This document shows positions 19,167 through 41,409 of a stretch of DNA of 41,409 bases, in pieces; within the stretch, counting starts at the first letter, position 1; each line of letters starts with the position of its first letter. The DNA lies in the UHGV virus genome UHGV-0177896; one strand, 5' to 3'. Source of the stretch: a virus. The notes beneath the pieces are model-generated. The model had not been told where the DNA came from. It ran no database searches and saw only the letters and a program-made list of their open reading frames with translations. The translations under genes and the position numbers were made by a program.

Positions 19167-19180
19167 GTGTTACCTGCGAT

Positions 19181-19954: not shown

Positions 19955-21272
19955 TCTCGATGTCCTCGTCGGTAATGGATGCCCCGATGCCGGTTACGTC
20001 AGAATTTTCTCGCAAATCAGTCATAGCGGCTTTCAGTGTCATCAGACCATCACCCAGCGCTGTACTGATTGCGTTGGTAGTGTTTAACGCCACCGTTGAG
20101 CGATCGACATCAGACATTTGCCAGAGCGGGTTAAACTCAAACGTGAAATCGTCCGGCAGCGGCTTGCCAAGCTCCGAACGATGCATGATGTCCAGTATCC
20201 GCCGCACCGGAAGACGTAAACGCCTCTCCTGCAACGAGCTTACCCGGTCGTAATAGTTGGCAAGGTCTGCATCGCCGGTAGAAAATCCCTTCGGGGACTG
20301 TCCGAACAACCGCACCAGTGGGATACCAACAGCGCCACTAATCTGTTCTGCAAACTGTGAAAGGATGTCATCCAGACCACTGAAGCTGTACTGATGGGTT
20401 TCAAACTTATCCCGCGAGTCCATGAGCGTCATGCCTTCATTGCTCTGGAACTGTCGAATCAGGTCGATATTCTTCAGCAACGCTTCATACGCAGGACCAC
20501 CAAGTGCGATAAGCTCGCGTAGCTTCTCCACGCTGTAGGTACGCAAATGCGCCTTGTAGACCAGCTGCGCCGCGCCGACAGTAGCGCTGTCGAACGCGGT
20601 AAGACGATCCCAGATACGCTCTACAACCGACATTCCCCATTCGTTCTCGGTCATCTTCTGCTGGAATGGCAGCGTGACGCCATCAAAGCGAATCAGGCGA
20701 CTGTGATGAATGCGCCAGGCAGGAATTCCCGTTGCTGTGGTCACCACATCGTAAAACTCAGGTTTACCCAGGTCCGGCCCCATATCTTTAATGCGGCGGG
20801 TCAGTACCGGGTCGATCATCCAGCGGTCGAGCGGGAGAATCCCCTTAAACTTGCCCTTACCGATGGTTTCGGGTCGCAGCGGGGTCATTGGTGCCTGCCC
20901 CTCAATCATGATGAAACCCACCGCGCCGCCGTAGAGGCGCGACCATTTCAGCACGTCGTTCAGCGCATCCCAGATTTGCAACTCATCCAGTTGTGATTCG
21001 AGAATGCCACGATCTTTTGCATCAATTTCCGACGTGATGCGAATGCCTTTGCGGGTCATATCATCCGGGATAGCATCGACCGCTTCGCCGATGATCCAAG
21101 ACGAACGATAGGACCATTCCACCAGCATGCGGTTACGACTGGTGAAATTAGCCCGGTAGGTGGATGCTGAGTGCTGGTTAGGTGTCTGCATCCCTACGCG
21201 GGCAATAAAATTCTCATAACCATCAGCTGTGGCCTGCGCAGTTCGCCGCAGGGCTTGTTTGTTTCGTGCCAT
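19806..21272 (-). CDS. Portal protein
   Basis: 488-aa ORF directly after the large terminase, with TGATG stop/start overlap. Size and position are those of a portal. Confidence 0.75.
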   Translation of the reverse strand: MARNKQALRRTAQATADGYENFIARVGMQTPNQHSASTYRANFTSRNRMLVEWSYRSSWIIGEAVDAIPDDMTRKGIRITSEIDAKDRGILESQLDELQIWDALNDVLKWSRLYGGAVGFIMIEGQAPMTPLRPETIGKGKFKGILPLDRWMIDPVLTRRIKDMGPDLGKPEFYDVVTTATGIPAWRIHHSRLIRFDGVTLPFQQKMTENEWGMSVVERIWDRLTAFDSATVGAAQLVYKAHLRTYSVEKLRELIALGGPAYEALLKNIDLIRQFQSNEGMTLMDSRDKFETHQYSFSGLDDILSQFAEQISGAVGIPLVRLFGQSPKGFSTGDADLANYYDRVSSLQERRLRLPVRRILDIMHRSELGKPLPDDFTFEFNPLWQMSDVDRSTVALNTTNAISTALGDGLMTLKAAMTDLRENSDVTGIGASITDEDIENAEDEAPPGIGEPDDEPQEPSGGNPVSNQPTQDSAGGRGHRKWSLRWFK

Positions 21273-22894
21273 CAGGCCTGTCTCCCTAGCAGCTCCCAGA
21301 TGTTCAGGGCTGAATTCATTGGGGCATAGTTGATCATCACCGAGTCGGCAAGGTTTGGCGACCGGGTTTCATCAGGCTGTTTATCAATAACGATTTTTCC
21401 CACACCATTAATGGAATAGGTCGGCTGCGAAAGCTCAATGATGAGTTTATCTTTGAGTGCCATGCTACTGCTGATTGAGATGATTTCGTCCGGGTTGTAA
21501 GCCATACCTTCAACCACAGCGCGCCAGGTATTCTGAAAAAGTTTACGTAACCGCCACCAGCTCTGGGCTTTGGCGTTAGCGAAGAAGTCCTTGTTCAGAC
21601 GTGCGGCTTGCCCGTTGTCCCCGCGAACAGCTTCATCATCCGGATCAAATACCGCGCCACTACCTCGAAACGGTGTGGCAAGTATTGACGGTCGACGCGC
21701 AGCGTTACGCAGTTCGTTGATAGCGCGTGCATCGCCGCGAACGCCAGCGCCCAGCCCGTCCTCATCAAAGCGAAACTCTTCGAGGTTGTCCTGTTCGCAA
21801 AAGCCGAAAACCTTCTCGACGGACTGATAAATGTCGCTGCCCACACCGGACCATTCCCGCACATTTTCCAGGAGGAAGCCATGACGGGTGGAAAAGGCAT
21901 TTTTGTCCCTGCCTTCGTCGGCGACATCCATCGCGCCAAGTCGTTTGCCTGTTGGCTGGATACCCAGTTTGATATGCGCATCAACGGCAGCCTGTACCCA
22001 TTCGGATGGAATCAGAACGCCTTCCGCTGATGCGCTGTAGTTCAGATCAAGTTCCTGTGCCACCACCACCGGATTATCGATTTTCTCGCATTCCCTGCGA
22101 TACCACTCTTCATCCTTGCGAGGATCATCCCGCCAGTGGAATGTGAATACCGGTATCTTCCCGCCATGACGCTTCTGAGCGAACGGGTTAGCCATGCCGT
22201 TAACTGAACTCAGGTCGATACGGCAACGCGTCGTTTGTGACAACGCCGCATCAATCAGCAGAGGACGCTGAAGGAATGCAGCCTCATCAACCAGATAAAG
22301 CGTGGTACGGTCACCACGACCAATATTATCGCCAGCCTCGCCTTTGATAACGGCACCAGTTTCAGGAAACTCAACACGCATATATGGCGCGTGCTTCTTC
22401 TCACTCCACGAACCGCGAAACTCTACAGGTAGCGTTTCCACGAACTTGCGTGCCTTCCAGAACAATGCTTTCGGGTCACCAGTGCTGTCGACGTATTCCT
22501 CTTTACGGGAGCCGAAACCGATAACCATTTCTTTGTTGAAGAGACAAAGCGAGCAGGCCAGTCCGATCGCGGTCCAACTGAGCCCCATTTCACGGGATTT
22601 TTCGGTAATACCATTCTCCCGATTGCCCCAGCGTTCCATAATCCAGTGGATCCACTCCTCCTGCTTAGGGAAGAGTAAAAACGGAATGGTCACCGGCAGG
22701 CCATAATCAATATTACGCGGGTCCGTTGTCATGCCCCAGTCGATGATGAACTGAGCCGGATTGGTTCGGTAAAACTGCTTCAATACGGGCAATATTTCAG
22801 GATTCTGGCGAATGCGCTGTAGGCGTTCCATCCGCCATTCAAAAACCATCTGGTAATCAGGATGTTTAAAATCGAAGGGGAATGGTAACGGCAT
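21272..22894 (-). CDS. Terminase large subunit
   Basis: 540-aa ORF following the small terminase, with an ATPase-type N-terminal half and nuclease-type C-terminal half by general pattern. Confidence 0.8.
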
Positions 22895-22896
22895 AC

Positions 22897-23448
22897 TTAG
22901 CCCATCATTTTTCTATACGCCTCTGCAGCCTGCTCCGGCGTTAAGTTGGTAATTTCTGTTCTGACTGGTCCTCCATCAGCGCCAGTCACTTCATTTTTGA
23001 CGTTGTCTTTAAACGCCTGAACAGAAACATGACGCCCAAGCAACTCAAGGTTTTTAACCTTATCAGGCCATTTGATTTTCTTCAGAAGTGCGGCGCTATC
23101 TGCGGATACCATCTCCACGACATCCATTCCTGATAGCGTTGTGCGCCATACCTTAGGCCAGTCTTTAATGGGCTTTAGCTCACCGTTTTGCAGGAGAATG
23201 TCGAGCACATCCATCTGGTCGATTTCAATAAGGCGATTAAGTACATATTCTGCATTAATACCAACAAGATCATTGCGTTGCGCTTTCAGTTCAGCGATTC
23301 TGAATTGTATGTCAGGTTTTGACAGGTTTTCGGATGCGGTACGGTTAGCTGTCTTTGCGCTGTACCCCGCCCGAATAGCCGCTTGCGTGGCGTTTAAATC
23401 GATGAGGTACTCGCGACAGAACATTTCTTGCTTGTCGGTGAGTGCCAT
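22897..23448 (-). CDS. Terminase small subunit
   Basis: 183-aa ORF. N-terminus [30 protein letters not shown] is a typical terS HTH-type opening. Immediately upstream of terL. Confidence 0.75.
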
Positions 23449-24148: not shown

Positions 24149-24334
24149 TCAGTCCCGAACGAACGTAACCTTCGTGTTTGTCGCTCGCCGTACAAGGCGC
24201 GCCGCTTCGCGTTGCATTTCATCGATAACTTTTGGCGTCATCGGCTGATGCGCATATTTACGTTCAATCTCTGCAAAAATCCCGTTCATCGTTTCGCTGT
24301 CTGGTGGGATAACTTTAACGTTTAATCGTGCCAT
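24149..24334 (-). CDS. Small hypothetical protein downstream of the spanins (61 aa)
   Basis: ATG at 24334 (MARLNVKV...) with a weak RBS. A plus-strand ORF 24146..24325 with a strong AAGGAG SD competes for the same DNA, so which is real is unresolved. Confidence 0.3.
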   Translation of the reverse strand: MARLNVKVIPPDSETMNGIFAEIERKYAHQPMTPKVIDEMQREAARLVRRATNTKVTFVRD

Positions 24335-24590
24335 TGGTTTGTGCTGCCCTGTTTTTCTCAAAAGTCCTGATATCAGCCTTATCCCTGTTGCACTGTGCTA
24401 ACGCTGACAACAACGCAACATTCAGGTTAAGGCTAGCTCCCCACGTAAACGGGTCGGGTAAATCTGGCTGGGGTGTTTCATCCGTCAGACTGGCTGGTAA
24501 CGGAACGACCGGCACCGACACGTATACCGTTCGCGTATTCGTGCAACCGCTTAACTGCGCCAGAAGGAACGATACGAACAGCGCAATCAT
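24315..24590 (-). CDS. o-spanin lipoprotein (Rz1-like), overlapped architecture
   Basis: ATG at 24590 in the +1 frame inside Rz. Lipobox LLAQLSGC followed by a Pro-rich segment (VPVVPLPASLTDETPQPDLPDP). Extends past the Rz stop. Confidence 0.65.
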   Translation of the reverse strand: MIALFVSFLLAQLSGCTNTRTVYVSVPVVPLPASLTDETPQPDLPDPFTWGASLNLNVALLSALAQCNRDKADIRTFEKNRAAQTNGTIKR

Positions 24591-24870
24591 CACCCGAAAC
24601 AGCCACTTTGATATCTTCCTGGGTTCTCTGTGACTCCAGTGCGATCTGCTGTTTTGCATGCTGGTTAGCCTCTATAACTGTATTGATGATTTGCAGAGAT
24701 TGCAGGACGTTACTGGTAATGGCTGTTGCAGATTCAGCATTTCGTACAGCCTCATCAGCACGCTCCTTTTCGTGCTGATATTTGCTGTAGTAATGCCCGG
24801 CAGACCAGATAAAAGAACCGATGACGGTAACAAAGAAGGCAACAATAACCAGCTTATATCTCAGCTTCAT
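24478..24870 (-). CDS. i-spanin (Rz-like)
   Basis: 130 aa with an N-terminal TM helix (LVIVAFFVTVIGSFIW) and charged helical periplasmic domain. Directly downstream of the endolysin. Confidence 0.75.
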   Translation of the reverse strand: MKLRYKLVIVAFFVTVIGSFIWSAGHYYSKYQHEKERADEAVRNAESATAITSNVLQSLQIINTVIEANQHAKQQIALESQRTQEDIKVAVSGDDCAVRIVPSGAVKRLHEYANGIRVGAGRSVTSQSDG

Positions 24871-25330
24871 TTACCACCCCACCAGCTTCTTTAAATCGGG
24901 AAATCAGGTCACCGATTCTATGTTCATACTGACCGTAACCTGCACCAGGTAACGACGCCCAGATATTGCTGCACCGGTCGATTGCCTGACGAATATCGCC
25001 GCGGTCAATCATCGGTAAAGCGCCACGCTCTTTAATCTGCTGCAGCGCTACAGCATCCTGACTTTCTGGAGAAAAATCTTTCAGGCCAAGTTGCTTGCGG
25101 TAGGCATCCCACCAGCGTGAAAGAAGCTGGTAACGTCCAGCGGCTGTTGATTTGAGTTTCGGATTTAGCGTGACAAGTTTGCGGGGGTGATCGGAGTAAT
25201 CAGTGAACAGTTCGCCACCGACAATAACATCATAACCGTGATTTCTGGTTTTCTGCCGTCCGTTATCTGTTCCTTCTGACCATGCCACCATATCCAGGAA
25301 AGCTTTACGCTGGGAATTAAGTGTCTGCAT
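24854..25330 (-). CDS. Endolysin (lambda R-like lytic transglycosylase/lysozyme)
   Basis: 158-aa ORF between holin and spanin with a strong AAGGAG SD. Sequence character consistent with the lambda R family. Confidence 0.75.
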   Translation of the reverse strand: MQTLNSQRKAFLDMVAWSEGTDNGRQKTRNHGYDVIVGGELFTDYSDHPRKLVTLNPKLKSTAAGRYQLLSRWWDAYRKQLGLKDFSPESQDAVALQQIKERGALPMIDRGDIRQAIDRCSNIWASLPGAGYGQYEHRIGDLISRFKEAGGVVNEAEI

Positions 25331-25333
25331 TAA

Positions 25334-25675
25334 TTACTCCTTATGGGCACCGAACTTGTTACCGATGACCCTCATTGCCGCACCACGAATAGCATCAACA
25401 CCAATCAGCCCCACCCCACCACCAATGGCAACAGAAAGTGATTTAGGCCATCCGACATACTCAAGCGCGGATGCAAAGGTCAGCGTCAGAGCACCACAAA
25501 GCAGAATCTCAAGCGTTTTTCGTTTCCAGCCGCCGCCACCGCCAAAATAGGCAATGCGCAAACCAGCCATAATAATTGACATAACCACTGCGCCCAGCGG
25601 CGTATCTCCACGCCACCAACTTTGTAAGAGTTCCAGTAAGTCAGGCCAGGAATGAGGGGCATTGTGCATTTTCAT
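25334..25675 (-). CDS. Class I holin with dual start (lambda S-like)
   Basis: Begins MKM (ATG at 25675 and 25669), the same Met1-Lys2-Met3 arrangement as lambda S107/S105. Multiple TM segments and a charged C-terminus. Confidence 0.75.
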   Translation of the reverse strand: MKMHNAPHSWPDLLELLQSWWRGDTPLGAVVMSIIMAGLRIAYFGGGGGWKRKTLEILLCGALTLTFASALEYVGWPKSLSVAIGGGVGLIGVDAIRGAAMRVIGNKFGAHKE

Positions 25676-26787: not shown

Positions 26788-26816
26788 ATTGAAGCAGTTT
26801 ATGCGTAAAAAATCAA
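26788..26816 (-). promoter_or_regulatory. Late promoter PR'-like (-35 TTGATT, 17-bp spacer, -10 TTCAAT) overlapping the Q stop
   Basis: Minus strand reads TTGATT-N17-TTCAAT immediately after the Q gene, with the tR' hairpin a short distance downstream. Same layout as lambda PR'/6S/tR'. Confidence 0.45.
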
Positions 26817-27355
26817 GCTATTTTTTGAGCAAATGATTCTCGCATGGGAATATATAGGGCATACTCAGCAACAGCCAACCAATTAGCAATTCGCTTTTCG
26901 CATGTGCTAAAACACCACTCAGGATGTGCATCATTTAGCAATTCAGCCATTTTGCGCTTAGCCATCCCCCGTCCTTCATACCGTTGCCGGAGGACACTAA
27001 TCAATCCAGGATGCTCTGCCAGCACCTCACTTATGACTCTATCAATACATAACGCCTCTGCATCAGTACAATGCGCCAGCCAGGTCTTTTGCTTGCCATT
27101 GATCATCTCTCGCAAAAACGCTTCCAGCTCAGGTTTCTCTATTCCCGCTTTTTTCATCCTGCGCAGGGCTTCATTGACGGCTGTTTTCGTCAATTTTTGG
27201 GATGCCAGCAACTGGTTAAACATATTTCCCGTCTTACCGCCGCCAATATACGACCAGCGCCCCCACATGCGCAGTTTTCCCTGAATCCAGACACTTTCCA
27301 GCGTGGTGAGACGAAGGTGTTCCCCGCTTTTGCCTGTATTTGTTGGGTAAATCAT
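26813..27355 (-). CDS. Late-gene antiterminator Q
   Basis: 180 aa from ATG 27355 (MIYPTNTG...) with a GGAGAAAGG SD. Last gene before the PR'/tR' signals and the lysis cassette. Start overlaps the upstream stop as ATGA. Confidence 0.65.
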   Translation of the reverse strand: MIYPTNTGKSGEHLRLTTLESVWIQGKLRMWGRWSYIGGGKTGNMFNQLLASQKLTKTAVNEALRRMKKAGIEKPELEAFLREMINGKQKTWLAHCTDAEALCIDRVISEVLAEHPGLISVLRQRYEGRGMAKRKMAELLNDAHPEWCFSTCEKRIANWLAVAEYALYIPMRESFAQKIA

Positions 27356-28800: not shown

Positions 28801-28956
28801 TTACTCCTCAGGTTCGTAAGCTGTGAAGACAGCGACCTCCGTCTGGCCGGTTCGGATTCGTACCTCGCAGAGGTCCTTCCTCGTTACCAGTGCCGTCACT
28901 ATGACGGTTAAACAGATGACAATCAGGGCGACTAACATCGCCTTTTGCTGCTTCAT
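28801..28956 (-). CDS. hok: Hok/Gef-family type I toxin (51 aa)
   Basis: MKQQKAMLVALIVICLTVIVTALVTRKDLCEVRIRTGQTEVAVFTAYEPEE: a single TM helix plus the conserved RKDLCEV...IRTGQTEVAVF core. AAGGAGAAG SD; an in-frame upstream ATG at 29013 may correspond to mok. Confidence 0.85.
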   Translation of the reverse strand: MKQQKAMLVALIVICLTVIVTALVTRKDLCEVRIRTGQTEVAVFTAYEPEE

Positions 28957-29294
28957 AGCCTGCTTCTCCTTGCCTTTCGGCACGTAAGAGGCTAACCTAC
29001 ATTTGTGAGACATAGATTGGGCCTCAGATTAATGTTAAGCGTCTTGCAGGACGCGTAATGTTAACTGGGGCTTTTCTCTGTCTGCCTTACAGTGGCATGC
29101 CCGAGGCAGACAGCCTCAAGCACCCGCAGCAATCTTACCGACACCGATAAGAAAACGCTATTTTTTATTGCCAGCACCTTCTATCCAGGCTAATTTATCT
29201 GCGTCAGAACGGCGCAATGCGCTCGCCTGAGATACGTTTACTTGCCATGGTAACAACAGGTAACGGCAATTGTTGTTTCTGTTTTGTTTCCTTC

Positions 29295-29330: not shown

Positions 29331-29414
29331 TTAACCCCAACGGCAAATCGAATACACCACCAGCGCCACCGCCATCACCATTCCTACCGTTGCGAATGCT
29401 TCAGGCCAGGTCAT
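29331..29414 (-). CDS. 27-aa hydrophobic peptide, translationally coupled
   Basis: MTWPEAFATVGMVMAVALVVYSICRWG; ATG overlaps the stop of the upstream 274-aa gene as ATGA, with GGAGGA 9 nt upstream. Followed directly by the terminator. Below ORF-track cutoff. Confidence 0.35.
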   Translation of the reverse strand: MTWPEAFATVGMVMAVALVVYSICRWG

Positions 29415-30235
29415 CGTAAAATATCCTCCACACCTACCAACCCGTTCTGCTTCAGATATTCCATCGCCTTATCAGGCAAGCTGCTTAAACTATTGGCGTA
29501 CTTTAAGGAGTGAGCCAGACGCTTAACCCACATTGTTAATTCGCTAACCTGGTTACCTGGCACTGGCGACGCTACTGTCTGTTCCAGAACGTCATCAGGT
29601 ACTACCGGCTCTACTGCCAACTGACTGGCATATTTGTTAATGGTAACGATAAGCTCTTGCTCGGCCTCATCCAGACAATCACCAACACCTCGCCTGTCAC
29701 CGTCAAAATCATCGAAATCGGCACGAATCCTGGCAACCTCCCGGATTGCGGACAACACTTCACCAGGAATTAGCGGAGAGTTGGTTGACGTTTCCGAAAT
29801 TTCCCGAAAATTATTGGTTGACGAATCCTTGTTTTCCCGAAAGTTTCCTGACTGAAGCATGGCTTCGCGGCAATCGTTCCATCCTTCAGCATAATCACTA
29901 TACGCAAGAGGCCAACCTCTTATGTATTCACGCGGCAACTTATCAGGCACTACCAGCGCTGGCGATGATGCATAAAGTGGTGTTATTTTTGCCCGAAAAT
30001 CACCTACTTTATGCAGTCGCACCCACCGTTCGACTTCTGCTTTGTCAGAATACATAGCGGTGAACGTATTATATTCATGGTCAATTTGCGTGAAGGTTGC
30101 CTTCCACGCCACCGGCTCTGCTTCCAGCGATGCCAGCGCAATCCGTGCCAGTTCCATTTGTTCACCACGGGTAAGCCCGTTTTCAAGCGGGTTTTTAATG
30201 AACAATTCAATACGTTCTTTGGTAATAGTGGTCAT
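29411..30235 (-). CDS. Hypothetical acidic protein (274 aa), nin-like region
   Basis: ATG at 30235 with an AAGGAG SD 6 nt upstream. No recognisable domain. Confidence 0.55.
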   Translation of the reverse strand: MTTITKERIELFIKNPLENGLTRGEQMELARIALASLEAEPVAWKATFTQIDHEYNTFTAMYSDKAEVERWVRLHKVGDFRAKITPLYASSPALVVPDKLPREYIRGWPLAYSDYAEGWNDCREAMLQSGNFRENKDSSTNNFREISETSTNSPLIPGEVLSAIREVARIRADFDDFDGDRRGVGDCLDEAEQELIVTINKYASQLAVEPVVPDDVLEQTVASPVPGNQVSELTMWVKRLAHSLKYANSLSSLPDKAMEYLKQNGLVGVEDILR

Positions 30236-32428: not shown

Positions 32429-33190
32429 TCACTTTTCCGACACAATAAGACTGGAGGAATCTACAATCTGTCGGACAATATCCCGGTACTTGTTCAGCTC
32501 CCGCAGCGCGGCGCAGACTCGCTCCCACTTCTGGACATGACTTTTCGCCCGACGCAGTTCGCGGTTTGCCATATGCAGCGATGGTAAAATCAGGTCATCC
32601 GATCGCGTTTCGGTGAACGATGGCAGCGACTGCACAATGTCCGCCACAGTTTCTGTTTTAATATCTTCCTGTGTTGCAGCTTCCTGTACTGGTAACGCAA
32701 CACATGCAGGCTGAGGAAAGGCTTTACCATCAGTTTCCGCTACCGATGCCGCTTTCGGCTCTGCTGGTAAATTATCGCCCGGTATGCAGTAACGAAATTT
32801 ACCGCCCTGATTTACGCGAATCAGACGACCTTTGCTGATTGCCATTGCCAGCGTTGAAGCCACTTTGCGTGATGTGGTACCAAACAATGTAGCCAGCTCA
32901 TCAGCCGTTTGTGGTCCGCGTTGTTCAATCGTCGCGGTTAAATCGCACTCTGAGATTTTCGCTACTGTTGCTGTGGTGGTTTCTTCCGGCAGTTCTGCCT
33001 GCGCTGGCTGTTCCTGCTGAACGTTGTTATCAGCCACACGCCAGGTGTACGCGCTTTTATCAACAAAACCAGCCTTTTTCAGTTCCCATAGTTCGTTCAG
33101 CACTTCTTCACGACTGATATCAAGTCGCGCAGCAAGTTCTATGGATGTGGCTTTTCCCATTGCTTTCAGTGCGTCAAAAACAGTCTCCAT
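32429..33190 (-). CDS. Hypothetical protein with N-terminal winged-helix-like region (253 aa)
   Basis: ATG at 33190 ([43 protein letters not shown]), with a second HTH-like stretch mid-protein. Downstream of the DnaC-like gene. Confidence 0.45.
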
Positions 33191-33212
33191 TAAATTTTTC
33201 TCCCGGTAAAAA

Positions 33213-33959
33213 TTACTTCGCAATTCCTGGCTGGACGACATTCGGACGCCAGCTCTCCCAGTTAAAATTCACCCAACACCCGCCGTTCATGGTCATGCGA
33301 TCCATAATCCTCTCGCCGAGCAATGTTTTCATGGCCTCATAGTTCAGGTTTGTCAGCATTCCCACGCTACGCATCGACGCTGTCCGTCGATCAATAATCT
33401 GGTGCAGTACCACCTGCTCGTTTTTCGTCTCGCGCTGAATGCCAATTTCATCAAGAACCAGCAGATCCACTTCGCACAGCTCCCGCAAAAATTTTTCGCC
33501 TGACTGCCCGTCGTCATAGCTGGCGTGCAGGGCGCTCATAACATCAGCCACGGTAACCACAATCACTGTCTGACCGTCTTTCAGCAGGCGATTCCCGATA
33601 GCTGCCGCTAAGTGATTTTTCCCGGTACCAGGTTTTCCGCTGAACGCAAAATTTGTACACCCGGTCATCAGTTCATCGGCGATGGATTTCGCCTGGCTTA
33701 ACGCGTATCGCTGCCCTTCGTTCTGCACCTGGTAATTCGCAAACGAGCATTTGCGGTGCAACGGCTGGATGCCAGAGCGATTCAGGATTTTTTCCACCCG
33801 CAACTGACGATTCAGGCGGTTGATCTCCTCGCAACGTTTCTGGCCTTCAGCAAGTTGCCACTCGCGCCACTCCGCAACCGTTCTGAATGGGGCGGTTACA
33901 TGTGGTGGGGTCAGTCTGCGGATACGCTCCAGAACGCCTCCTGTCGCAATATTTTTCAT
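33213..33959 (-). CDS. DnaC/IstB-like replication helicase loader (AAA+ ATPase)
   Basis: Walker [16 protein letters not shown] and Walker [10 protein letters not shown] are present. 248 aa, downstream of the DnaT-like initiator gene. Same position as YdaV in Rac. Confidence 0.85.
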
Positions 33960-33965
33960 GGTCCG

Positions 33966-34754
33966 TTACCCCCTGAAGCCTGGCGGGATCGCACTGTCCG
34001 GCAACGAGACGGTGTTAACCTGTCGGAGCAACGTCTCAGGCCGAACACCTTTCGGCGCGAACAGGCCCTGGTATTCATTGGCGATGCTGTGTCGAATCAC
34101 CTGCTCAGGTGTAAAACCCTGCTGACGGAATTTTTCCAGCTCCCGTATCGCCCCGTTAGCGCCCTGCTCCGTTCGAATCGGTTTTCGCAATGCCTGCCTG
34201 AACTGAACCCACTCATGCCAGAGTGTTTCCGGCAACCAGTCAGGCAGCTCGATAGCCTCCGGCTCGAATTTTTTAGACGCTCGTTTTTGGCGAGGGGGAT
34301 TTAGGGGGAGATCAGTATTTATATCTTCCTCTTCCTCTTCCTCTGGTAACGCTTTTTGATCCGTTTGTGTAACGCTGGCAGCGTTACCTTTTCGTTTCAG
34401 TTCGCGTATTTTTGTAACTCGCTCGTTTGTAACCGCCCGTTTTTTAGAGCTTTTTCCGTTATGACGTTCAAAGTTAGGTAGAGAAAGCCCAACGTCATTT
34501 TCGACCAGCCATCCAACCTGAATTAACGCATCAGCAAAACCAGCCATAAAAGTGATGCGATCTATTGCACTTTTTGTAACGCCGCGAGCGTTACAATCTG
34601 CATTACCGTCTATCATTTGTTGATCCGCCCATGCCCAGAAGCGAATAACCTTCCCTAATGCGGCATCTGGATCAATATTCAGAATCTCAGCAAGCCTGAA
34701 TATTTCCGGCTTATCCGGCGTAATAACCTCGAGCTTTATCCAGTTTGAAGCCAT
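33966..34754 (-). CDS. Replication initiation / primosomal protein (YdaU-like)
   Basis: 262-aa ORF preceding the DnaC-like gene, with a central acidic linker (EEEEEEDINTD). Contains two 19-bp palindromes in its coding sequence. Confidence 0.55.
   Translation of the reverse strand: MASNWIKLEVITPDKPEIFRLAEILNIDPDAALGKVIRFWAWADQQMIDGNADCNARGVTKSAIDRITFMAGFADALIQVGWLVENDVGLSLPNFERHNGKSSKKRAVTNERVTKIRELKRKGNAASVTQTDQKALPEEEEEEDINTDLPLNPPRQKRASKKFEPEAIELPDWLPETLWHEWVQFRQALRKPIRTEQGANGAIRELEKFRQQGFTPEQVIRHSIANEYQGLFAPKGVRPETLLRQVNTVSLPDSAIPPGFRG
34369..34387. repeat. 19-bp palindrome GTAACGCTGGCAGCGTTAC (copy 1 of 3)
   Basis: Perfect GTAACGC-N5-GCGTTAC dyad inside the replication gene; an extra GTAACGC half-site lies at 34346..34352. 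Confidence 0.7.
34576..34594. repeat. 19-bp palindrome GTAACGCCGCGAGCGTTAC (copy 2 of 3)
   Basis: Same GTAACGC-N5-GCGTTAC dyad, 207 bp from copy 1, inside the replication gene. Confidence 0.7.
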
Positions 34755-34767
34755 TTGTTTTCACCTT

Positions 34768-34786
34768 GTAACGCTCGCAGCGTTAC
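34768..34786. repeat. 19-bp palindrome GTAACGCTCGCAGCGTTAC (copy 3 of 3)
   Basis: Same dyad, immediately upstream of the replication gene's RBS and ATG (34754). Confidence 0.7.
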
Positions 34787-34831
34787 ATTTAACTGATACC
34801 GAACAAAACAATCCGGCACGATTAATTTCAA

Positions 34832-35254
34832 TCAATGCACTACGACAGAATCGCCGGGCGACCCACCACCGCTGAAATGTGCTTTCCGGTAAACGGCCTG
34901 GACTGCATCATCATGCGCATCAATTGCCGTACTCAACGCTTCCTGCGCCGCCAGTAATGCACGGCGTTCCAGGGTATCGAAGATGCAGAGTCGGTGACGC
35001 AGCTCGCGCGGAAGAATTGCCAGAACCGCAGGGATCAGTTTCTGAATTTTTTCCCTTTGCGCTTTCGTTTCACCTTTCAACCAACGGTGATAGATATTCT
35101 GCTGATTGTTCCAGTCCTTGCCTGGTACAAGGGGCAATTCGCCGCCCCCCTGGCGCAGATATTCTTCAGTAATTGCGTTAGCGACCCACGCCTGCCCTTT
35201 TTCGGCTGCCAGGGCTAACAACACTGATTCGATGTGCTCATGCCTGATTTTCAT
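34832..35254 (-). CDS. ydaT: YdaT-like early protein (CII-like position, 140 aa)
   Basis: 140-aa ORF translationally coupled (ATGA) to the Cro-like gene. Matches my recollection of Rac YdaT in length and N-terminus (MKIxHEHIESVL). Confidence 0.5.
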   Translation of the reverse strand: MKIRHEHIESVLLALAAEKGQAWVANAITEEYLRQGGGELPLVPGKDWNNQQNIYHRWLKGETKAQREKIQKLIPAVLAILPRELRHRLCIFDTLERRALLAAQEALSTAIDAHDDAVQAVYRKAHFSGGGSPGDSVVVH

Positions 35255-35493
35255 GAATCAACCGCTCCTATGCTGTTTTCGCTATGCTTACCGTCTGGGG
35301 GGAATACATCGTCAAGTCCACAATGAGCGCCAAGCCGATTAAGGGTAGAAACAATTTTTCTGCACTCCTCTAGTCCAGGGGTACGAAAATTTGCTTCGTA
35401 ATTTGCCAGTCGGCTTTGTATCCACCCTAACTGAACAGCAAGTTGTCTTTGAGACAGCCCAAGCTGTTTTCGATATGTTGAAATTTTGTTCAT
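35251..35493 (-). CDS. ydaS: Cro-like HTH regulator (YdaS-like, XRE family)
   Basis: 80 aa with an HTH (LGLSQRQLAVQLGWIQSRLANYE). First gene of the early operon, divergent from the repressor gene, with a GGAGG SD. Confidence 0.6.
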   Translation of the reverse strand: MNKISTYRKQLGLSQRQLAVQLGWIQSRLANYEANFRTPGLEECRKIVSTLNRLGAHCGLDDVFPPDGKHSENSIGAVDS

Positions 35494-35589
35494 TGAAAAC
35501 CTCCGATGACAATTTTAAACACACCTTGTGTTATATGGTCAAGCTGTTTTGTGTTTTATGTAAATCACGATTCGTGATACAAGGATGCA
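35494..35589. promoter_or_regulatory. Divergent immunity control region with candidate operators
   Basis: 96-bp gap between divergent HTH genes. Holds the dyad AACACA-CCT-TGTGTT (35518..35532), a second TTGTGTT (35549..35555) and the perfect 15-bp palindrome ATCACGATTCGTGAT (35564..35578). Confidence 0.55.
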
Positions 35590-36009
35590 ATGGAAAAAGA
35601 AAACGAAAAAATTGCCGCTAGTAGGCTCAATGACAAAATTGCAATGCGTCTTAAAGAGCGCAGGCAGAAGCTTGGTTTATCTCAAGGAAAACTTGCTGAA
35701 ATCTGCGGATGGACGCAATCGCGTATAGGTAACTATGAGGCGGGCAGCAGAAATGTTGGAGTGCATGACGCTGTCGTATTGGGAAAGGCACTTGGCATAT
35801 CTCCTCCTGAGCTCCTATTTGGAGAACAGGAATCTTCTGAATTGTGGTTAAATGAATCCCAACGAAAACTTCTTGAGTTGTTTAACCAGCTACCGGGCTC
35901 AGAACAACAACGAATGATTGAGCTATTTGAAGTCCGGCTAAAAGAAATCGATGAGTATGTAGAAAAATATTTGAGAGGCAGGCTTAAAGATAATCCCCCA
36001 CCGGAGTAA
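35590..36009 (+). CDS. XRE-family HTH repressor (RacR/CI-like)
   Basis: 139 aa with HTH LGLSQGKLAEICGWTQSRIGNYEAG. Divergent from the Cro-like operon and followed by a strong terminator. Confidence 0.7.
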   Translation: MEKENEKIAASRLNDKIAMRLKERRQKLGLSQGKLAEICGWTQSRIGNYEAGSRNVGVHDAVVLGKALGISPPELLFGEQESSELWLNESQRKLLELFNQLPGSEQQRMIELFEVRLKEIDEYVEKYLRGRLKDNPPPE

Positions 36010-36039
36010 TGATCTTGCTATCACAGTAATATGCCAATC

Positions 36040-36063
36040 AGCCCGCTATCAGCGGGCTTTTTT
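36040..36063 (+). terminator. Rho-independent terminator downstream of the repressor gene
   Basis: Stem AGCCCGCT/AGCGGGCT with a 3-nt loop, followed by TTTTTT. Confidence 0.7.
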
Positions 36064-36105
36064 GTACCATCATCATATGACACTCACCACAAAACACATT
36101 TCGTG

Positions 36106-36134
36106 TTGACATAAGAAAACGCATTGTGTTTAAT
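36106..36134 (+). promoter_or_regulatory. Sigma70-like promoter (TTGACA-N17-TTTAAT) with operator-like dyad
   Basis: Consensus -35 TTGACA at 36106..36111 and -10 TTTAAT at 36129..36134. The dyad ACACATTTCGTGT overlaps the -35, and a TTGTGTT motif like those in the immunity region sits in the spacer. Confidence 0.5.
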
Positions 36135-36308
36135 AAGCATATCCAAACAACGCCCCACCAGAGAACGGCTGGACAATACCTCGAGTTATCCAGCCACTGA
36201 ACAGGGCTAAGTAGCCAGCCTGAGGCATACGAACATGACGGCAGTTGTTGATTGATACAAAGCGCAGTAGATAAAACGTTCCGCCACCCGGCGTTAAGGG
36301 GAAAAAAG

Positions 36309-36527
36309 ATGGTTGGTGAAGATCTGGTTGTTATTAACGGTCAATTGTGCAGCAAAGATGTGGCAGCCATGCTTATTAGCAAGGTTCTTCCAACTGTGCT
36401 GGAGGTCATTGCAGAAAAAGTAAAGGCTGGTCGTCCAGACAAGGAAGTTGAAGAGGCGGCAAAAACAGTTGTTCATGCCGCTACAGAAGCAATTATTTTG
36501 AAGAGCCTAGTTTCGCCCAAGCCTTAA
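36309..36527 (+). CDS. Hypothetical small protein (72 aa)
   Basis: ATG at 36309 with an AAGGGG SD 7 nt upstream. First ORF downstream of the promoter at 36106. Confidence 0.45.
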   Translation: MVGEDLVVINGQLCSKDVAAMLISKVLPTVLEVIAEKVKAGRPDKEVEEAAKTVVHAATEAIILKSLVSPKP

Positions 36528-36687
36528 GTGAATCGGCGCTTTTTTTAGCATCACGTTCATTGAGTAATGACAAAAACTCATTCTCAGCATTCTCGATTTC
36601 CGAGAAAAATTCTTGATGAGTTGTTTCTCGCTGCGATCTGATGCTGAAAGCTAAAGCAAGTAGCCAGGCTTTGTCTTTATTATCCAT
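36493..36687 (-). CDS. Hypothetical small protein (64 aa), opposite strand within the early-left region
   Basis: ATG at 36687 with a weak SD. Convergent with, and overlapping, the 3' end of the 36309..36527 ORF. Uncertain. Confidence 0.3.
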   Translation of the reverse strand: MDNKDKAWLLALAFSIRSQRETTHQEFFSEIENAENEFLSLLNERDAKKSADSLKAWAKLGSSK

Positions 36688-37083
36688 AGGAATACCTTAT
36701 TACTGGTTGTGTGAGAACTCCAGTATACCACCGAGCCTGAAGTGGTAAAAAGACAGGCGCACAACACGAAGGCGCATTTCCGGTATTCATAAAGAGTCGG
36801 TCTTGTCTGTTAAATTTAAATGGTGGGAGTGCGCCTCCGGTTGTAAATAACGACAATTGCTATGTGTAGTCTTTGGCGGCATCAGTTCTACTCCGTGGCT
36901 GCCCTGCCGCCCCTTTTTAAAGTGAATTTTGTGATGCGGTGAATGCGGCTAAGCGCACGCAGCACAGTTAAAAGCATCAGTGTTATGGGTGGATTATCCG
37001 GCGTTAATTGTTAACTGGTTAACGTCACCTGGAGGCACCAGGCACCGCATCGACAAAATTCATTTGTAAAAATGGAGATAATT

Positions 37084-37305
37084 ATGATTGCTCATCACTT
37101 CGGAACTGATGAAATACCACGTCAGTGTGTGACCCCTGGCGATTATGTTCTTCATGAAGGTCGGACATATATCGCCTCGGCAAACAATATTAAAAAGCGA
37201 AAACTTTATATTCGTAGCCTGACTACAAAAACATGCATTTCTGACTGCATGATTAGAGTCTTCCTCGGTCGTGATGGTTTACCTGTAAAGGCGGAGTCAT
37301 GGTAA
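37084..37305 (+). CDS. kilR: KilR-like cell-division inhibitor (73 aa)
   Basis: [46 protein letters not shown]... matches my recollection of Rac KilR. ATG at 37084 with GGAG 6 nt upstream. Confidence 0.6.
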
Positions 37306-37475
37306 TGACTAAGAAAATAAAATGTGCTTATCACCTTTGCAATAAAGAAATTGAAGAAAGCAAAATCATTACAAGACCACTTCATTTCATGCGTGGAGTT
37401 ATACCAACGACGGAAATGAAAAAATATTGTAGTGAAATCTGTGCCGAAAAAGACCAGATGGCACACGAACTTTAA
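37305..37475 (+). CDS. ydaE: YdaE-like small Cys-rich (zinc-binding) protein (56 aa)
   Basis: Hand-translated: [56 protein letters not shown]. Four Cys in a C-x4-C...C-x3-C pattern. Below ORF-track cutoff. Confidence 0.5.
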   Translation: MTKKIKCAYHLCNKEIEESKIITRPLHFMRGVIPTTEMKKYCSEICAEKDQMAHEL

Positions 37476-37549
37476 TTAACTGACTATCCGAAACTGAATT
37501 TATGCCAGCAATGGCAGGGATTCGCTCAACCTTAATTAAGGAGAAAAAC

Positions 37550-37825
37550 ATGATTACCAGTTATGAAGCCACTGTTGTTACTACTGATGACATTGTTCAC
37601 GAAGTTACCCTGGAAGGAAAGCGTATTGGCTACGTGATTAAGACAGAAAATAAAGAAACCCCATTCACTGTGGTTGATATCGACGGTCCATCAGGCAACG
37701 TTAAAACACTTAACGATGGTGTTAAAAAAATGTGTCTGGTGCACATAGGAAAGAATCTGCCCGCAGAAAAAAAAGCCGAATTTCTGGCAACTCTGATTGC
37801 AATGAAATTAAAAGGTGAAATCTGA
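37550..37825 (+). CDS. racC: RacC-like protein (91 aa)
   Basis: ATG at 37550 (MITSYEATVVTTDDIVHEV...) with a TAAGGAG SD. Immediately upstream of recE, as in Rac. Confidence 0.6.
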   Translation: MITSYEATVVTTDDIVHEVTLEGKRIGYVIKTENKETPFTVVDIDGPSGNVKTLNDGVKKMCLVHIGKNLPAEKKAEFLATLIAMKLKGEI

Positions 37826-37923
37826 AAAAAGAAAGCCTGCACACTGTGCAGGCCTGAGTGAAGAACCTGGGACATTTATTCATCACTCGCATTAATTTTA
37901 ATCTGAGTTGAGGTTAAAAAACA

Positions 37924-40557
37924 ATGAGCACCGATAAACAAGTTTACCCACTGTATTACGAAGCAAAAAATGACAAAGTAAGAAAACGTCTCGGTATTAA
38001 AGGCGGTTTCTACTGGGCTGAAGCGAAAAAATTATCCATTGCCATCTCCCGTGGTGCTGTTGCGATTGACGATGCTGGCTACGATGAAGATGACTTTAAA
38101 AAACCTGTTCGCGTCAATTTGCCCGTTGTTGATGACCTTCCACCAGAAGGCGTATTTGATACGGAATTCTGCAACCGTTACGAAAAAGGCGGGGAAGATG
38201 GCATCACAATGGTATTTATCGCGCCCTCATCCTCTGCGCAGGACAAACCAGCCAGCACTGACAATACCAATGTTAATGGCGAAGACATGACGGAGATTGA
38301 GGAGAATATGCTACTCCCGATTTCCGGTCAGGAGCTGCCCATTCGCTGGCTTGCTCAACACGGCAGCGAAAAACCGGTAACGCACGTTTCACGCGACGAA
38401 CTACAGGCATTACACATTGCACGAGCTGAAGAACTACCAGCTGTTACTGCCCTGGCTGTTTCCCACAAAACCAGCCTGCTCGACCCGCTGGAAATTCGCG
38501 ATCTCCACAAACTGGTGCGTGATACTGACAGAGTTTTCCCTAATCCAGGCAATTCAAGCCTGGGGCTGATGACTGCTTTTTTCGAAGCATACCTGGACGC
38601 AGACTACACCGATCGCGGTCTGCTGACAAAAGAGTGGATGAAAGGAAATCGTGTTTCACGCATCACGCGCACGGCTTCCGGCGCTAATGCTGGCGGCGGG
38701 AACCTCACCGATCGCGGCGAAGGTTTCGTTCACGATCTGACGTCACTGGCGCGCGACGTAGCCACTGGCGTACTGGCTCGTTCAATGGACGTGGACATTT
38801 ATAACCTTCATCCGGCACACGCTAAACGTGTCGAGGAAATTATCGCTGAAAATAAACCACCCTTTTCTGTTTTCCGCGACAAATTCATCACCATGCCTGG
38901 TGGGCTGGATTATTCCCGCGCCATCGTGGTTGCGTCCGTAAAAGAAGCACCAATTGGGATCGAGGTTATCCCCGCACACGTCACTGAATATCTGAACAAA
39001 GTACTGACTGAAACTGATCATGCCAACCCTGATCCAGAAATCGTGGATATTGCCTGCGGTCGTTCCTCTGCCCCGATGCCGCAGCGTGTAACAGAAGAAG
39101 AAAAACAGGATGATGAAGAAAAACTGCAACCATCTTGCGCAATGGCAGATGAACAGGCAACGGCTGAAACAGTGGAACCGGATGCAACTGAACATCATCA
39201 GGACACGCAGTCGCTGGATGCTCAGTCACAGGTAAATTCTGTTGATGCGAAATATCAGAAACTGCGGGCAGAACTCCATGAAGCCCGGAAAAACATTCCG
39301 CCCAAAAATCCTGTCGATGCAGACAAATTACTGGCTGCCTCTCGCGGAGAATTTGTTGAAGGGATTAGCGACCCGAACGATCCGAAATGGGTTAAGGGGA
39401 TCCAGACTCGCGATTCTGTGTACCAGAACCAGCCAGAAACGGAAAAAATCAGCCCGGATGCGAAACAACCTGAGCCAGTAGTGCAACAGGAACCGGAAAT
39501 AGTCTGCAATGCCTGCGGTCAGACTGGCGGGGATAACTGCCCTGACTGTGGTGCGGTGATGGGCGACGCAACATACCAGGAAACATTCGGTGAAGAGAAT
39601 CAGGTTGAAGCTAAGGAAAAAGATCCGGAGGAAATGGAAGGCGCTGAACATCCGCACAATGAGAATGCTGGCAGCGATCCGCATCGCGATTGCAGTGATG
39701 AAACTGGCGAAGTCGCAGATCCCGTAATCGTAGAAGACATAGAGCCAGGTATTTATTACGGAATTTCGAATGAGAATTACCACGCGGGTCCCGGTGTCAG
39801 TAAGTCTCAGCTCGATGACATTGCTGATACTCCGGCACTGTATTTGTGGCGTAAAAATGCCCCCGTGGACACTACAAAGACAAAAACGCTCGATTTAGGA
39901 ACCGCTTTCCACTGCCGGGTACTTGAACCGGAAGAATTCAGTAACCGCTTTATCGTAGCACCTGAATTTAACCGCCGTACAAACGCCGGAAAAGAAGAAG
40001 AGAAAGCGTTTCTGATGGAATGCGCAAGCACAGGAAAAACGGTTATCACTGCGGAAGAAGGCCGGAAAATTGAACTCATGTATCAAAGCGTTATGGCTTT
40101 GCCGCTGGGGCAATGGCTTGTTGAAAGCGCCGGACACGCTGAATCATCAATTTACTGGGAAGATCCGGAAACAGGAATTTTGTGTCGGTGCCGTCCGGAC
40201 AAAATTATTCCTGAATTTCACTGGATCATGGACGTGAAAACCACAGCGGATATTCAACGATTCAAAACGGCTTATTACGACTACCGCTATCACGTTCAGG
40301 ATGCATTCTACAGTGACGGTTATGAAGCACAGTTTGGCGTGCTGCCAACTTTCGTTTTTCTGGTTGCCAGCACAACTGTTGAATGCGGACGTTACCCGGT
40401 TGAGATTTTCATGATGGGCGAAGAAGCAAAACTGGCAGGCCAGCAGGAATATCACCGCAATCTGAGGACCCTGGCTGACTGCCTGAATACCGATGAATGG
40501 CCAGCTATTAAAACGTTATCACTGCCCCGCTGGGCTAAGGAGTATGCAAATGACTAA
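37924..40557 (+). CDS. recE: Exonuclease VIII (RecE), full length (877 aa)
   Basis: C-terminal domain matches the RecE nuclease region as I recall it ([25 protein letters not shown]...[22 protein letters not shown]). Followed by and overlapping recT. No internal stops. Confidence 0.85.
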
Positions 40558-41359
40558 GCAACCACCTATCGCAAAAGCCGATCTGCAAAAAACCCAGGGA
40601 AACCGTGCACCAGCAGCAGTAAAAAATAACGACGTGATCAGCTTTATTAATCAGCCATCAATGAAAGAGCAACTGGCAGCAGCTCTCCCACGCCATATGA
40701 CGGCTGAACGAATGATACGTATCGCCACCACAGAAATTCGTAAGGTTCCGGCGCTAGGAAACTGTGACACCATGAGTTTTGTCAGTGCGATCGTTCAGTG
40801 TTCACAGCTCGGCCTTGAGCCAGGTAGCGCCCTCGGCCACGCATATTTACTGCCTTTTGGTAATAAAAACGAAAAGAGCGGTAAAAAGAACGTTCAGCTA
40901 ATCATTGGTTATCGCGGCATGATTGATCTGGCTCGCCGTTCTGGTCAAATCGCCAGCCTGTCAGCCCGTGTTGTCCGTGAAGGTGACGAGTTTAGTTTTG
41001 AATTTGGCCTTGATGAAAAGTTAATACACCGCCCGGGAGAAAACGAAGATGCACCAGTGACCCACGTCTATGCTGTCGCAAGACTGAAAGACGGAGGGAC
41101 TCAGTTTGAAGTTATGACGCGCAAACAGATTGAACTGGTGCGCAGCCAGAGTAAGGCTGGTAATAACGGGCCATGGGTAACTCACTGGGAAGAAATGGCA
41201 AAAAAAACGGCTATTCGTCGCCTGTTTAAATACCTGCCTGTCTCAATTGAAATCCAGCGTGCAGTATCAATGGATGAAAAGGAACCACTGACAATCGATC
41301 CGGCAGACTCCTCTGTATTAACCGGGGAATACAGTGTAATCGATAATTCAGAAGAATAA
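40550..41359 (+). CDS. recT: RecT single-strand annealing protein (269 aa)
   Basis: ATG at 40550 ([29 protein letters not shown]...) with a TAAGGAG SD. Overlaps the recE stop by 8 nt. Matches RecT throughout as I recall it. Confidence 0.9.
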
Positions 41360-41409
41360 TTCAGCCTGGCGGTGTAATGCACCGCCAACGTGAGACAGTT
41401 TTTATGACA

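Follow-up and report, generated by a model that had tools for sequence, protein, structure and literature searches.

Does the kilR-ydaE-racC-recE-recT module that closes UHGV virus genome UHGV-0177896 (41,409 nucleotides, the whole of which we call the window) belong to a working member of the Rac prophage family, and does it provide a natural RecET source, as the first-pass annotation proposed? We are fairly confident of the following account: the module is the distal half of an early-left (PL-type) operon in a mosaic lambdoid E. coli prophage, its RecE is chimeric, and the prophage is complete on paper. The five genes themselves are well known as the recombination operon that Rac-type phages of E. 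coli carry, real but ordinary. The coordinates of all features are collected in Table 1.

Table 1. Features of the window, with position, strand and grounds for assignment
Feature	Position	Strand	Description and basis
attL core, 32 bp	840-871		copy of sdsR 3' end (TAAAAAGAGACCGAACACGATTCCTGTTTTCG); comparison with the empty K-12 site
Morphogenesis block	3615-23448	-	small and large terminase, portal, head, neck, sheath, tube, tape measure, baseplate, tail fibre
Lysis cassette	24315-25675	-	holin, GH24 endolysin, two Rz-like spanin ORFs; PHROGs 126, 90, 214, 456; RefSeq
Q-like late antiterminator	26813-27355	-	PHROG 753, E = 3e-79
Replication initiator, DnaC-like loader (ydaV), cII analogue ydaT	33213-35254	-	PHROGs 2509, 50
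Cro-like HTH regulator (80 aa)	35251-35493	-	Pfam HTH_3; position, divergent from the repressor gene
Operator-like palindrome AAACACACCTTGTGTT	35517-35532		between repressor and cro-like genes; repeat family D1
Prophage repressor, 139 aa	35590-36009	+	Pfam HTH_3; HTH only, without S24 peptidase domain
Terminator-like hairpin	36040-36058	+	3' of the repressor gene; terminator scan
PL-like promoter TTGACA-17-TTTAAT	36106-36134 (element 36092-36134)	+	11/12 promoter matches
First early-left operon ORF, 72 aa	36309-36527	+	RefSeq CDS; PHROG 23495
DicF-family sRNA with terminator hairpin	36861-36912	+	position of K-12 KilS; Rfam RF00039, alignment to the K-12 kilS region
kilR	37084-37305	+	73 aa; inhibitor of FtsZ; 68/73 identical to K-12 KilR; PHROG 294
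ydaE	37305-37475	+	56 aa, small zinc-finger-like protein; 41/56 identical to K-12 YdaE
racC	37550-37825	+	91 aa; 87/91 identical to K-12 RacC
recE	37924-40557	+	877 codons; ORF list, Pfam PF06630 and PF12684, PDB 3h4r, K-12 RecE alignment
recE codons 1-113	37924-38262	+	swapped N-terminal domain and linker, dicB/Qin-prophage exonuclease type; without K-12 DNA homology
recT	40550-41359	+	single-strand annealing protein; 267/269 identical to K-12 RecT; Pfam RecT

The gene calls are secure. For recT the open frame reaches back to 40493, but the K-12-type start MTKQPP lies at 40550, so that recE and recT share 8 nt (40550-40557), exactly as they do in K-12; together with the ORF list this upholds the earlier description of recE as an uninterrupted frame of 877 codons with an 8-nt overlap. 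The start of ydaE shares 1 nt with the stop codon of kilR, and a GGAG or GAGG motif stands 6-10 nt upstream of the start codon in all five genes, including racC, ydaE and kilR, for which good ribosome-binding sites had been claimed. RecT matches PF03837 (E = 1.2e-56) and is related to the solved RecT 7ub2, while YdaE has a Pfam RPAP2_Rtr1 match slightly under the cut-off. The order kilR-ydaE-racC-recE-recT-ralR-rcbA is that of K-12 Rac, whose operon begins with kilS, at 87-95% nucleotide identity.

The sequence has a close bacterial match. A prophage of E. coli AVS0790 equals the window almost base for base: positions 3595-41409 (37.8 kb) differ from the record by one mismatch, and the pieces 1-1806 and 1787-3614 by two mismatches each, the only structural difference being the inversion of 1787-3614. 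RefSeq annotates and names all five module genes in this record. The fibre segment occurs in both orientations among near-identical copies of the element, which suggests a working invertase. The exact fibre arrangement of the window is absent in one piece from the complete genomes searched, which fits inversion rather than a different sequence. Of the 5426 complete E. coli genomes, 1600 (∼30%) carry the module at a coverage of at least 80% of the region. The late region passes the same threshold in 20 complete genomes, whose hosts are unrelated; several of them, namely PEC209, APEC-O117H42, 12089 and FDAARGOS_1287, have it no more than ∼12 kb away from this recET module. The lineage is probably circulating.

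In the window we found what a temperate phage needs, at full length: regulators, replication, late control, lysis and morphogenesis genes, in agreement with the complete lysis, packaging, head and tail set first reported beside the early region. The morphogenesis block holds homologues of 24 of the 28 structural proteins of the Salmonella phage SEN34 (genus Brunovirus), in the same order; 22 of the 24 align over essentially their full length at 64-95% amino acid identity, the tape measure and tail fibre in part only. Baseplate J is among the sheath, tube and baseplate genes. The second spanin ORF of the lysis cassette is named LysC by RefSeq and is Rz1-like. YdaV and YdaT are identical to their K-12 counterparts at 239/248 and 133/140 positions, and YdaT is an analogue of cII (PMC11879457). 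Two small fragments in the nin region are annotated as pseudogenes by RefSeq, with an intact 274-codon ORF spanning both. Just beyond the window, the annotation of the matching record shows xis and int to be intact.

SEN34 is the closest named virion module, colinear from large terminase and portal to baseplate at ∼82% nucleotide identity. Its small terminase is a different one, as are the integrase, the immunity region and the tip of the tail fibre, and in the place taken by RecE and RecT in the window it has Gam, a RecT-like protein and an exonuclease of the lambda Exo type. Since 69% of positions 1-24000 aligns with it at 82% identity and the early half is unrelated, the element falls outside Brunovirus by the genus-level cut-off of ∼70% genome-wide nucleotide similarity (ICTV convention).

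The expression of the module appears to be governed from further upstream than was first thought. A sigma-70-like site passing the promoter-scan rule is absent from the plus strand of 35200-38000. By a relaxed count the best plus-strand site is TTGACA-17-TTTAAT, ∼950 bp upstream of kilR, and sites nearer to kilR reach 8/12 matches only. A consensus promoter directly upstream of kilR was therefore rejected; the consensus-like promoter that the first-pass annotation had placed upstream of the module is borne out only in a loose sense, by this distant site (11/12 matches), which is likely the promoter of the operon. Two operator-like palindromes (36092-36107 and 36115-36130) overlap the site, and both belong to the repeat family of the one between the repressor and cro-like genes. 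In a lysogen, the repressor probably binds these AAACAC-N4-GTGTT-type palindromes, one in the repressor/cro intergenic region and two over the promoter just downstream of its own gene, and would thereby keep the operon silent. Derepression would yield one leftward transcript, which from gene order and strand should cover the 72-aa ORF, the DicF-family sRNA, kilR, ydaE, racC, recE and recT and run past the window end into ralR, the rcbA-like gene, xis and int. It should be noted, however, that the terminator-like hairpin ending the DicF-like element sits between the proposed promoter and kilR, which counts against a single transcript, and that no N-like antiterminator was recognised by PHROG family search. 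The RNA itself scores 60.9 bits against RF00039 (gathering score 48) with the consensus hairpin and 52/52 model positions matched, while the K-12 sRNA at the same place upstream of kilR reaches 39.1 bits only. Its RNAduplex energies with the ftsZ leader do not differ from those of shuffled sequences, but as genuine K-12 DicF fares no better (32/300 shuffles as good), the comparison has no power to speak for or against pairing.

Given their near-identity to the characterised K-12 proteins, KilR would block FtsZ, RecE would use its C-terminal PD-(D/E)XK domain to resect double-strand ends 5'-3', and RecT, translationally coupled to it by the 8-nt overlap, would anneal the exposed strand. The logic is that of lambda Red (exo-bet, kil; PL operon), where a repressor-controlled leftward early operon, likewise upstream of xis and int, encodes an FtsZ inhibitor along with a 5'-3' exonuclease and its annealing partner (PMC12315714). 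The differences are the ∼600-residue N-terminal extension of RecE and, in the window, no recognised Gam or N-like antiterminator.

What, then, is the relation to Rac? That the element represents K-12 Rac in its ancestral, still intact state would account for the shared order from kilR to rcbA and for ydaT and ydaV (∼94%), yet we consider it highly improbable. The element is inserted at the 3' end of sdsR (sdsR/ryeA locus), between pphA and yebY, and not in ttcA; attR lies ∼1.9 kb past the window end and matches attL at 29/32 positions (an exact-word search for att repeats at the prophage ends returned 11-mers only). Its integrase and excisionase have no BLASTP match to IntR and XisR, its repressor is unrelated to RacR (BLASTP E = 2), and it has contractile-tail genes where K-12 Rac retains the lambda-like tail remnants lomR, stfR and tfaR, with ynaA. 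At the DNA level K-12 Rac is matched only at 32741-34327, 34834-35260, 36151-36313, 36727-37931 and 38262-41841, the last block extending 432 nt past the window end; no homology was detected across 35261-36150, the position of the RacR/YdaS immunity region, and other genes stand here in place of the upstream sieB, ydaF and racR. Integrase, attachment site, repressor and tail type together contradict identity with Rac: by sequence comparison, what the two have in common is confined to the early-left operon and a portion of the replication region, and the K-12 element is a remnant where the one described here is complete. Recombination would have brought the module together with a SEN34-like contractile-tail block and with an integrase, attachment site and immunity region unlike those of Rac.

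A weightier alternative is a cryptic prophage: the gene set is full, yet recET would be kept as host-domesticated cargo as in K-12 and never packaged. K-12 does show the module persisting in a dead element, and the switch region gives some reason for caution. No LexA box of the form CTGT-N8-ACAG is present in the window, no antirepressor family was matched in PHROG and Pfam searches, and the repressor is of the HTH-only type, so an SOS-responsive switch was not recovered; without the S24 self-cleavage domain and a LexA box, a positive mitomycin C result should not be assumed. The two annotated pseudogene fragments point the same way, as does the nature of the similar 'phage' records. We rejected vB_EcoS-666R9, vB_EcoM-611R5 and the like as evidence of viability since they are PHASTER-predicted prophages and not sequenced virions. 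Predicted prophages such as vB_EcoM-611R5 are 97.5% identical in nucleotides to the morphogenesis block. Against this stand the SEN34 structural homologues, none of which is interrupted and nearly all of which align end to end, the intact lysis, Q-like, replication, int, xis and att functions, the occurrence of near-identical late regions with the same module in unrelated isolates of chicken, pig, human and water origin, and the two orientations of the fibre segment among near-identical copies. We regard crypticity as a serious possibility, short of being probable, and describe the element as an apparently complete, mosaic prophage on the strength of its genes. The proposal of a functional family member is supported as far as the full gene set, att, int and xis go, and falls if it is taken to mean a functional copy of Rac.

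The combination of a Rac-type early region with a fuller phage has been described before. Sp10 and CP-933R carry such a region with a fuller gene set, integrated at ttcA, unlike the element studied here (PMC4632033), and Rac-SA53 (GenBank record), which carries intR, likewise has the Rac-type early-left operon on a fuller phage genome; its RecE (1048 aa) and RecT (367 aa) cease to match the window at about recE codon 600. Both recE (866 aa) and recT of K-12 are intact and already standard in recombineering (PMC11611040), so the suggested natural RecET source is not new and contributes only an allele. The module and its place in fuller prophages are already known and annotated in public genomes; with RefSeq names for all five genes, presence in ∼30% of complete E. 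coli genomes and a literature on Rac-type early regions, it has little weight as a discovery.

RecE has 877 residues here against 866 in K-12; the two are 90% identical over residues 48-877 (∼95% over 114-877), and residues 1-47 show no alignment, so the N-terminal difference noted in the first-pass annotation is real. DNA homology ends at 37931 and restarts at 38262, which places the divergent part at residues 1-113. The first 113 codons have ∼83% nucleotide identity to the 5' end of the gene for an 813-aa exonuclease, and RecE is, by this comparison, chimeric, its first ∼113 residues representing an allele of the dicB/Qin-type prophage exonucleases. In the AF2 model residues 1-100 are folded and 102-111 have pLDDT below 50, so the exchange point falls just after a predicted disordered linker. 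PF06630 (Exonuc_VIII, E = 1.2e-37) is matched at profile positions 43-203 only, whereas K-12 RecE matches 1-203. Beyond the N-terminal region (residues 1-∼600), residues 616-877 form the PD-(D/E)XK 5'-3' exonuclease domain, almost the same as the K-12 domain solved in 3H4R (E = 1.6e-178; PF12684, E = 2.5e-27). The stretch RPDK...MDVK is identical to K-12, its D/D/K aligning with D748, D759 and K761, which we take to be the catalytic residues of the K-12 enzyme (3H4R).

The arm from which the N-terminus seems to derive, dicF-dicB-(DUF1482)-exonuclease of Qin/CP-933P type, resembles the present one in having a DicF sRNA, a small FtsZ-directed division inhibitor and a large exonuclease, whose first ∼600 residues are 67% identical to RecE and whose first ∼113 are the same allele. 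It has DicB instead of KilR and no recT after the exonuclease, which ends in a DEDD Rv2179c-like 3'-5' domain and not in PD-(D/E)XK.

Whether the exchange matters to the enzyme is a separate question. An effect on RecE function, through partner or host-factor binding or the efficiency of linear-linear recombination, and thus more than neutral mosaicism, seems unlikely to us. It would agree with the confident prediction of residues 1-100 as a separate domain, with an exchange point that follows the linker, and with both alleles being common (at ≥90% identity, ∼159 genomes carry this one and 1690 that of K-12). The N-terminal region of K-12 RecE matters in linear-linear recombination (PMC11611040, citing Fu et al. 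2012), which also favours an effect; the region is known to improve such recombination. On the other hand, searches of PDB and BFVD gave no structural relative of the domain, and racC sits upstream of both alleles, giving no sign of co-variation with the neighbouring gene. More doubtful still is the specific proposal that residues 1-∼100 are an exchangeable adaptor domain, swapped at the linker, that would set the partner or DNA-end context; if true, linear-linear recombination would differ from that of the K-12 enzyme on which RecET direct cloning relies. Such an adaptor swap would have taken place between RecE of Rac type and, in other prophages, 'RecE family' proteins that are either nuclease-less or DEDD-type. 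A natural RecE allele that parts cleanly from K-12 in its N-terminal domain, with the break at the linker, is of modest practical value, but along with its nuclease-less and DEDD-nuclease relatives it makes up a panel for probing the ∼600-residue N-terminal region.

The kilR-ydaE-racC-recE-recT module consists of five intact genes, as the first-pass annotation had held: in the ORF list recE runs uninterrupted through 877 codons, and since recT has a K-12-type start (MTKQPP), 8 nt are common to recE and recT, exactly the overlap seen in Rac, the cryptic prophage of E. coli K-12. The good ribosome-binding sites noted at the same time are also present, with GGAG or GAGG 6–10 nt 5' of the start codon in all five genes. 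Identity to the K-12 Rac proteins is 68/73 for KilR, 41/56 for YdaE, 87/91 for RacC and 267/269 for RecT. Pfam assigns Exonuc_VIII and PD-(D/E)XK domains to RecE and the RecT domain to RecT; RecE residues 616–877 correspond to the K-12 nuclease domain of known structure, 3H4R (E = 1.6e–178), and the RPDK...MDVK stretch (K-12 D748, D759 and K761) is the same in both proteins. By every sequence test applied, the module is a member of the RecE/RecT family. A GC-rich hairpin of 10 bp lies between racC and recE (37833–37855), with a T-run on the minus strand only.

Genes of the module (from the ORF list) and blocks of DNA homology to K-12 Rac
Feature	Position	Strand	Remark
kilR	37084–37305	+	
ydaE	37305–37475	+	
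racC	37550–37825	+	
recE	37924–40557	+	877 codons
recT	start 40550	+	frame open from 40493
K-12 Rac homology	32741–34327		ydaU/ydaV/ydaW region, 94%
K-12 Rac homology	34834–35260		ydaT, 93%
K-12 Rac homology	36151–36313		75%
K-12 Rac homology	36727–37931		kilS position to racC, 87%
K-12 Rac homology	38262–41841		recE from codon 114, recT, ralR, rcbA, 95%; reaches 432 nt past the window end

The region 37000–41409 is 100% identical in E. coli AVS0790 (NZ_CP124436.1) and AVS0196, and a copy covering at least 80% of it is present in 1600 of the 5426 complete E. coli genomes. In the AVS0790 record, kil, a YdaE family protein, recE and recT are already named by RefSeq. The module is thus real and no chance pattern, yet common and already annotated. 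AVS0790 differs from the window by one mismatch over 37.8 kb (3595–41409), by two in the piece 1–1806 and by two in the piece 1787–3614, and the sole structural difference is inversion of segment 1787–3614. This tail-fibre segment is bounded by 20-nt inverted repeats (1787–1806 and 3595–3614) and adjoined by a pinE invertase gene; the fibre and assembly ORFs are intact in either orientation.

The reading of the element as an apparently complete prophage is borne out, as virion genes of the type of SEN34 (a Salmonella phage with a contractile tail), lysis and replication genes, int, xis and att were all found. Matches in the window were obtained for 24 of 28 queried SEN34 structural proteins, in the same order, through the series large terminase, portal, head, neck, sheath, tube, tape measure and baseplate. 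While 22 of them align essentially over their full length (64–95% identity), the tape measure and tail fibre match only partially, and no window match was found for the SEN34 small terminase, two hypothetical proteins and the tail-fibre assembly protein. SEN34 belongs to the genus Brunovirus, with which the element has only virion genes in common. The window also holds a small terminase subunit, a holin, an endolysin, two Rz-like spanin ORFs, a Q-like antiterminator, NinB, a replication initiator, a DnaC-like loader, and cro-like and YdaT (cII-like) regulators; in the matching AVS0790 record xis, int and attR follow 0.1–1.9 kb past the window end. With coverage of at least 80%, the late region recurs in 20 complete genomes; PEC209, APEC-O117H42, 12089 and FDAARGOS_1287 have the same recET module no more than about 12 kb away from it. 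This pattern suggests a circulating lineage.

Several smaller features of this part of the genome were also noted. A 176-codon ORF between baseplate genes (7165–7695, minus strand) matches PHROG 18554 (E = 5e–60) at a gap in the RefSeq annotation. At 29411–30235 (minus strand) RefSeq marks two short pseudogene fragments, one DUF551 and one a hypothetical protein; an intact 274-codon ORF covers both, and with its piecewise matches to several PHROG families it looks like a mosaic ORF. In the nin region, a sok antitoxin RNA (28951–29125, minus strand; Rfam, 118 bits) lies beside the hokD toxin gene.

Whether such an element is an intact Rac can be judged from its relation to the K-12 prophage. 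Only the five blocks listed in the table show DNA homology to K-12 Rac anywhere in the prophage. Comparison with the empty K-12 site places the insertion at the 3' end (terminator) of sdsR, in the ryeA/sdsR locus between pphA and yebY, whereas K-12 Rac is inserted in ttcA. The 32-bp att repeats, at 840–871 and beyond the window end (48795–48826 of the stretch L003, own coordinates), are identical at 29 of 32 positions, and the full sdsR copy stands on the int side of the prophage; sdsR was already known as a phage attachment locus (PMC3333887). Neither integrase nor excisionase gave a BLASTP match to IntR or XisR, and the repressor, a 139-aa HTH protein, is not related to RacR. Altogether, four of the five defining Rac features tested are lacking. 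Given the other insertion site, integrase/excisionase and repressor, the element is not an intact Rac but a mosaic lambdoid prophage with a Rac-type early-left arm. Such arms on fuller prophages are known from Sp10 and CP-933R (PMC4632033), and the GenBank record Rac-SA53 is a further case.

Easy induction is disfavoured, because the repressor (35590–36009, plus strand) has an HTH domain and no S24 self-cleavage peptidase domain was found in it, no LexA box (CTGT-N8-ACAG) occurs anywhere in the window, no antirepressor was recognised there, and the most similar 'phage' records, vB_EcoM-611R5 and vB_EcoS-666R9, are PHASTER predictions and not sequenced virions.

The divergence of the RecE N-terminus from K-12 proved correct on alignment and ends before N114: residues 1–47 do not align, 48–110 align weakly, and identity is about 95% from N114 on. 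Across 37931–38262 there is no K-12 DNA homology; this stretch instead shows about 83% identity with the 5' end of a gene for an 813-aa exonuclease that sits in dicB-DUF1482-exonuclease-xis-int arms of other prophages. Over its first ∼615 residues the 813-aa protein shares 67% identity with the RecE described here, but its C-terminal part is a DEDD Rv2179c-like 3'-5' exonuclease domain, and no recT follows its gene. Some 159 complete genomes carry the allele found here (first 339 nt) with at least 90% identity, and 1690 carry the K-12 version of the recE 5' part. For RecE residues 1–420 (37924–39183), AlphaFold2 with 70 diverse homologues gives a confident model (mean pLDDT 89), with a discrete domain (1–100), a disordered linker (102–111) and a mainly helical domain (112–∼390). 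Because the recombination junction comes after the linker, the difference from K-12 is a clean domain swap. Foldseek searches with it against PDB and BFVD gave no match at E ≤ 0.001. The natural RecET source proposed is not a new one, since K-12 recE and recT are both intact already, and what is added is only a chimeric allele. The original observation is correct, its interpretation was overstated and its novelty is low.

The ∼600-residue N-terminal region of RecE (37924–39723, residues 1–600) is found in 235 clusters of a library of 1.84 billion proteins. Among 52 long members, Pfam recognises PD-(D/E)XK in 17, DEDD in 10 and RecT in two, and no domain past the N-terminal Exonuc_VIII region in the remainder. 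In E. coli and Shigella, proteins of 646–657 aa have an N-terminal region 97–100% identical to the first 400 residues of RecE, after which there is just a short hydrophobic tail beyond that region. The region is a portable module, fused to PD-(D/E)XK, to the DEDD Rv2179c-like 3'-5' exonuclease, to RecT or to no recognisable nuclease; this view draws on the window region, positions 5001–7442 of another locus (L004) and three proteins (P0001, P0015 and P0042). It is partly known already: earlier work on lambdoid Rec modules noted both 'RecE-2' proteins that lack a nuclease and DnaQ-like nucleases (PMC12315714). The RecE N-terminal region has been described as of unknown function, while full-length RecE improves linear-linear recombination (PMC11611040).

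The consensus-like promoter reported upstream of the module was recovered in part. No plus-strand site within 35200–38000 passes the rule of the scan, and nothing near consensus adjoins kilR; the best plus-strand site, TTGACA-17-TTTAAT at 36106–36134 (11/12 matches), directly follows the repressor-gene terminator (36040–36058). It is overlapped by two 16-bp palindromes (36092–36107 and 36115–36130), both in the repeat family of AAACACACCTTGTGTT, which lies in the repressor/cro intergenic region (35517–35532). A lambdoid phage would be expected to have its OL/PL and OR laid out in this way. A single leftward operon under repressor control would run from a 72-aa ORF through the sRNA, kilR, ydaE, racC, recE, recT, ralR, an rcbA-like gene and xis to int, with the terminator-like hairpin of the sRNA (36895–36910) inside it. 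In K-12, inhibiting Rho reportedly uncovers kilR (PMC4632033).

The sRNA of the arm (36861–36912, plus strand) belongs to the DicF family (Rfam RF00039, 60.9 bits; gathering score 48) and is placed 170 nt upstream of kilR, where K-12 has the sRNA KilS. The K-12 copy reaches only 39.1 bits; DicF is not mentioned in the paper naming KilS. In this arm a DicF-like RNA therefore accompanies a protein that inhibits FtsZ, a pairing like that of dicF-dicB in Qin. The kilR leader (36902–37091, plus strand) also scores 41.3 bits to the Salmonella sRNA family STnc100, below the gathering score of 47; its K-12 equivalent scores 28 bits.
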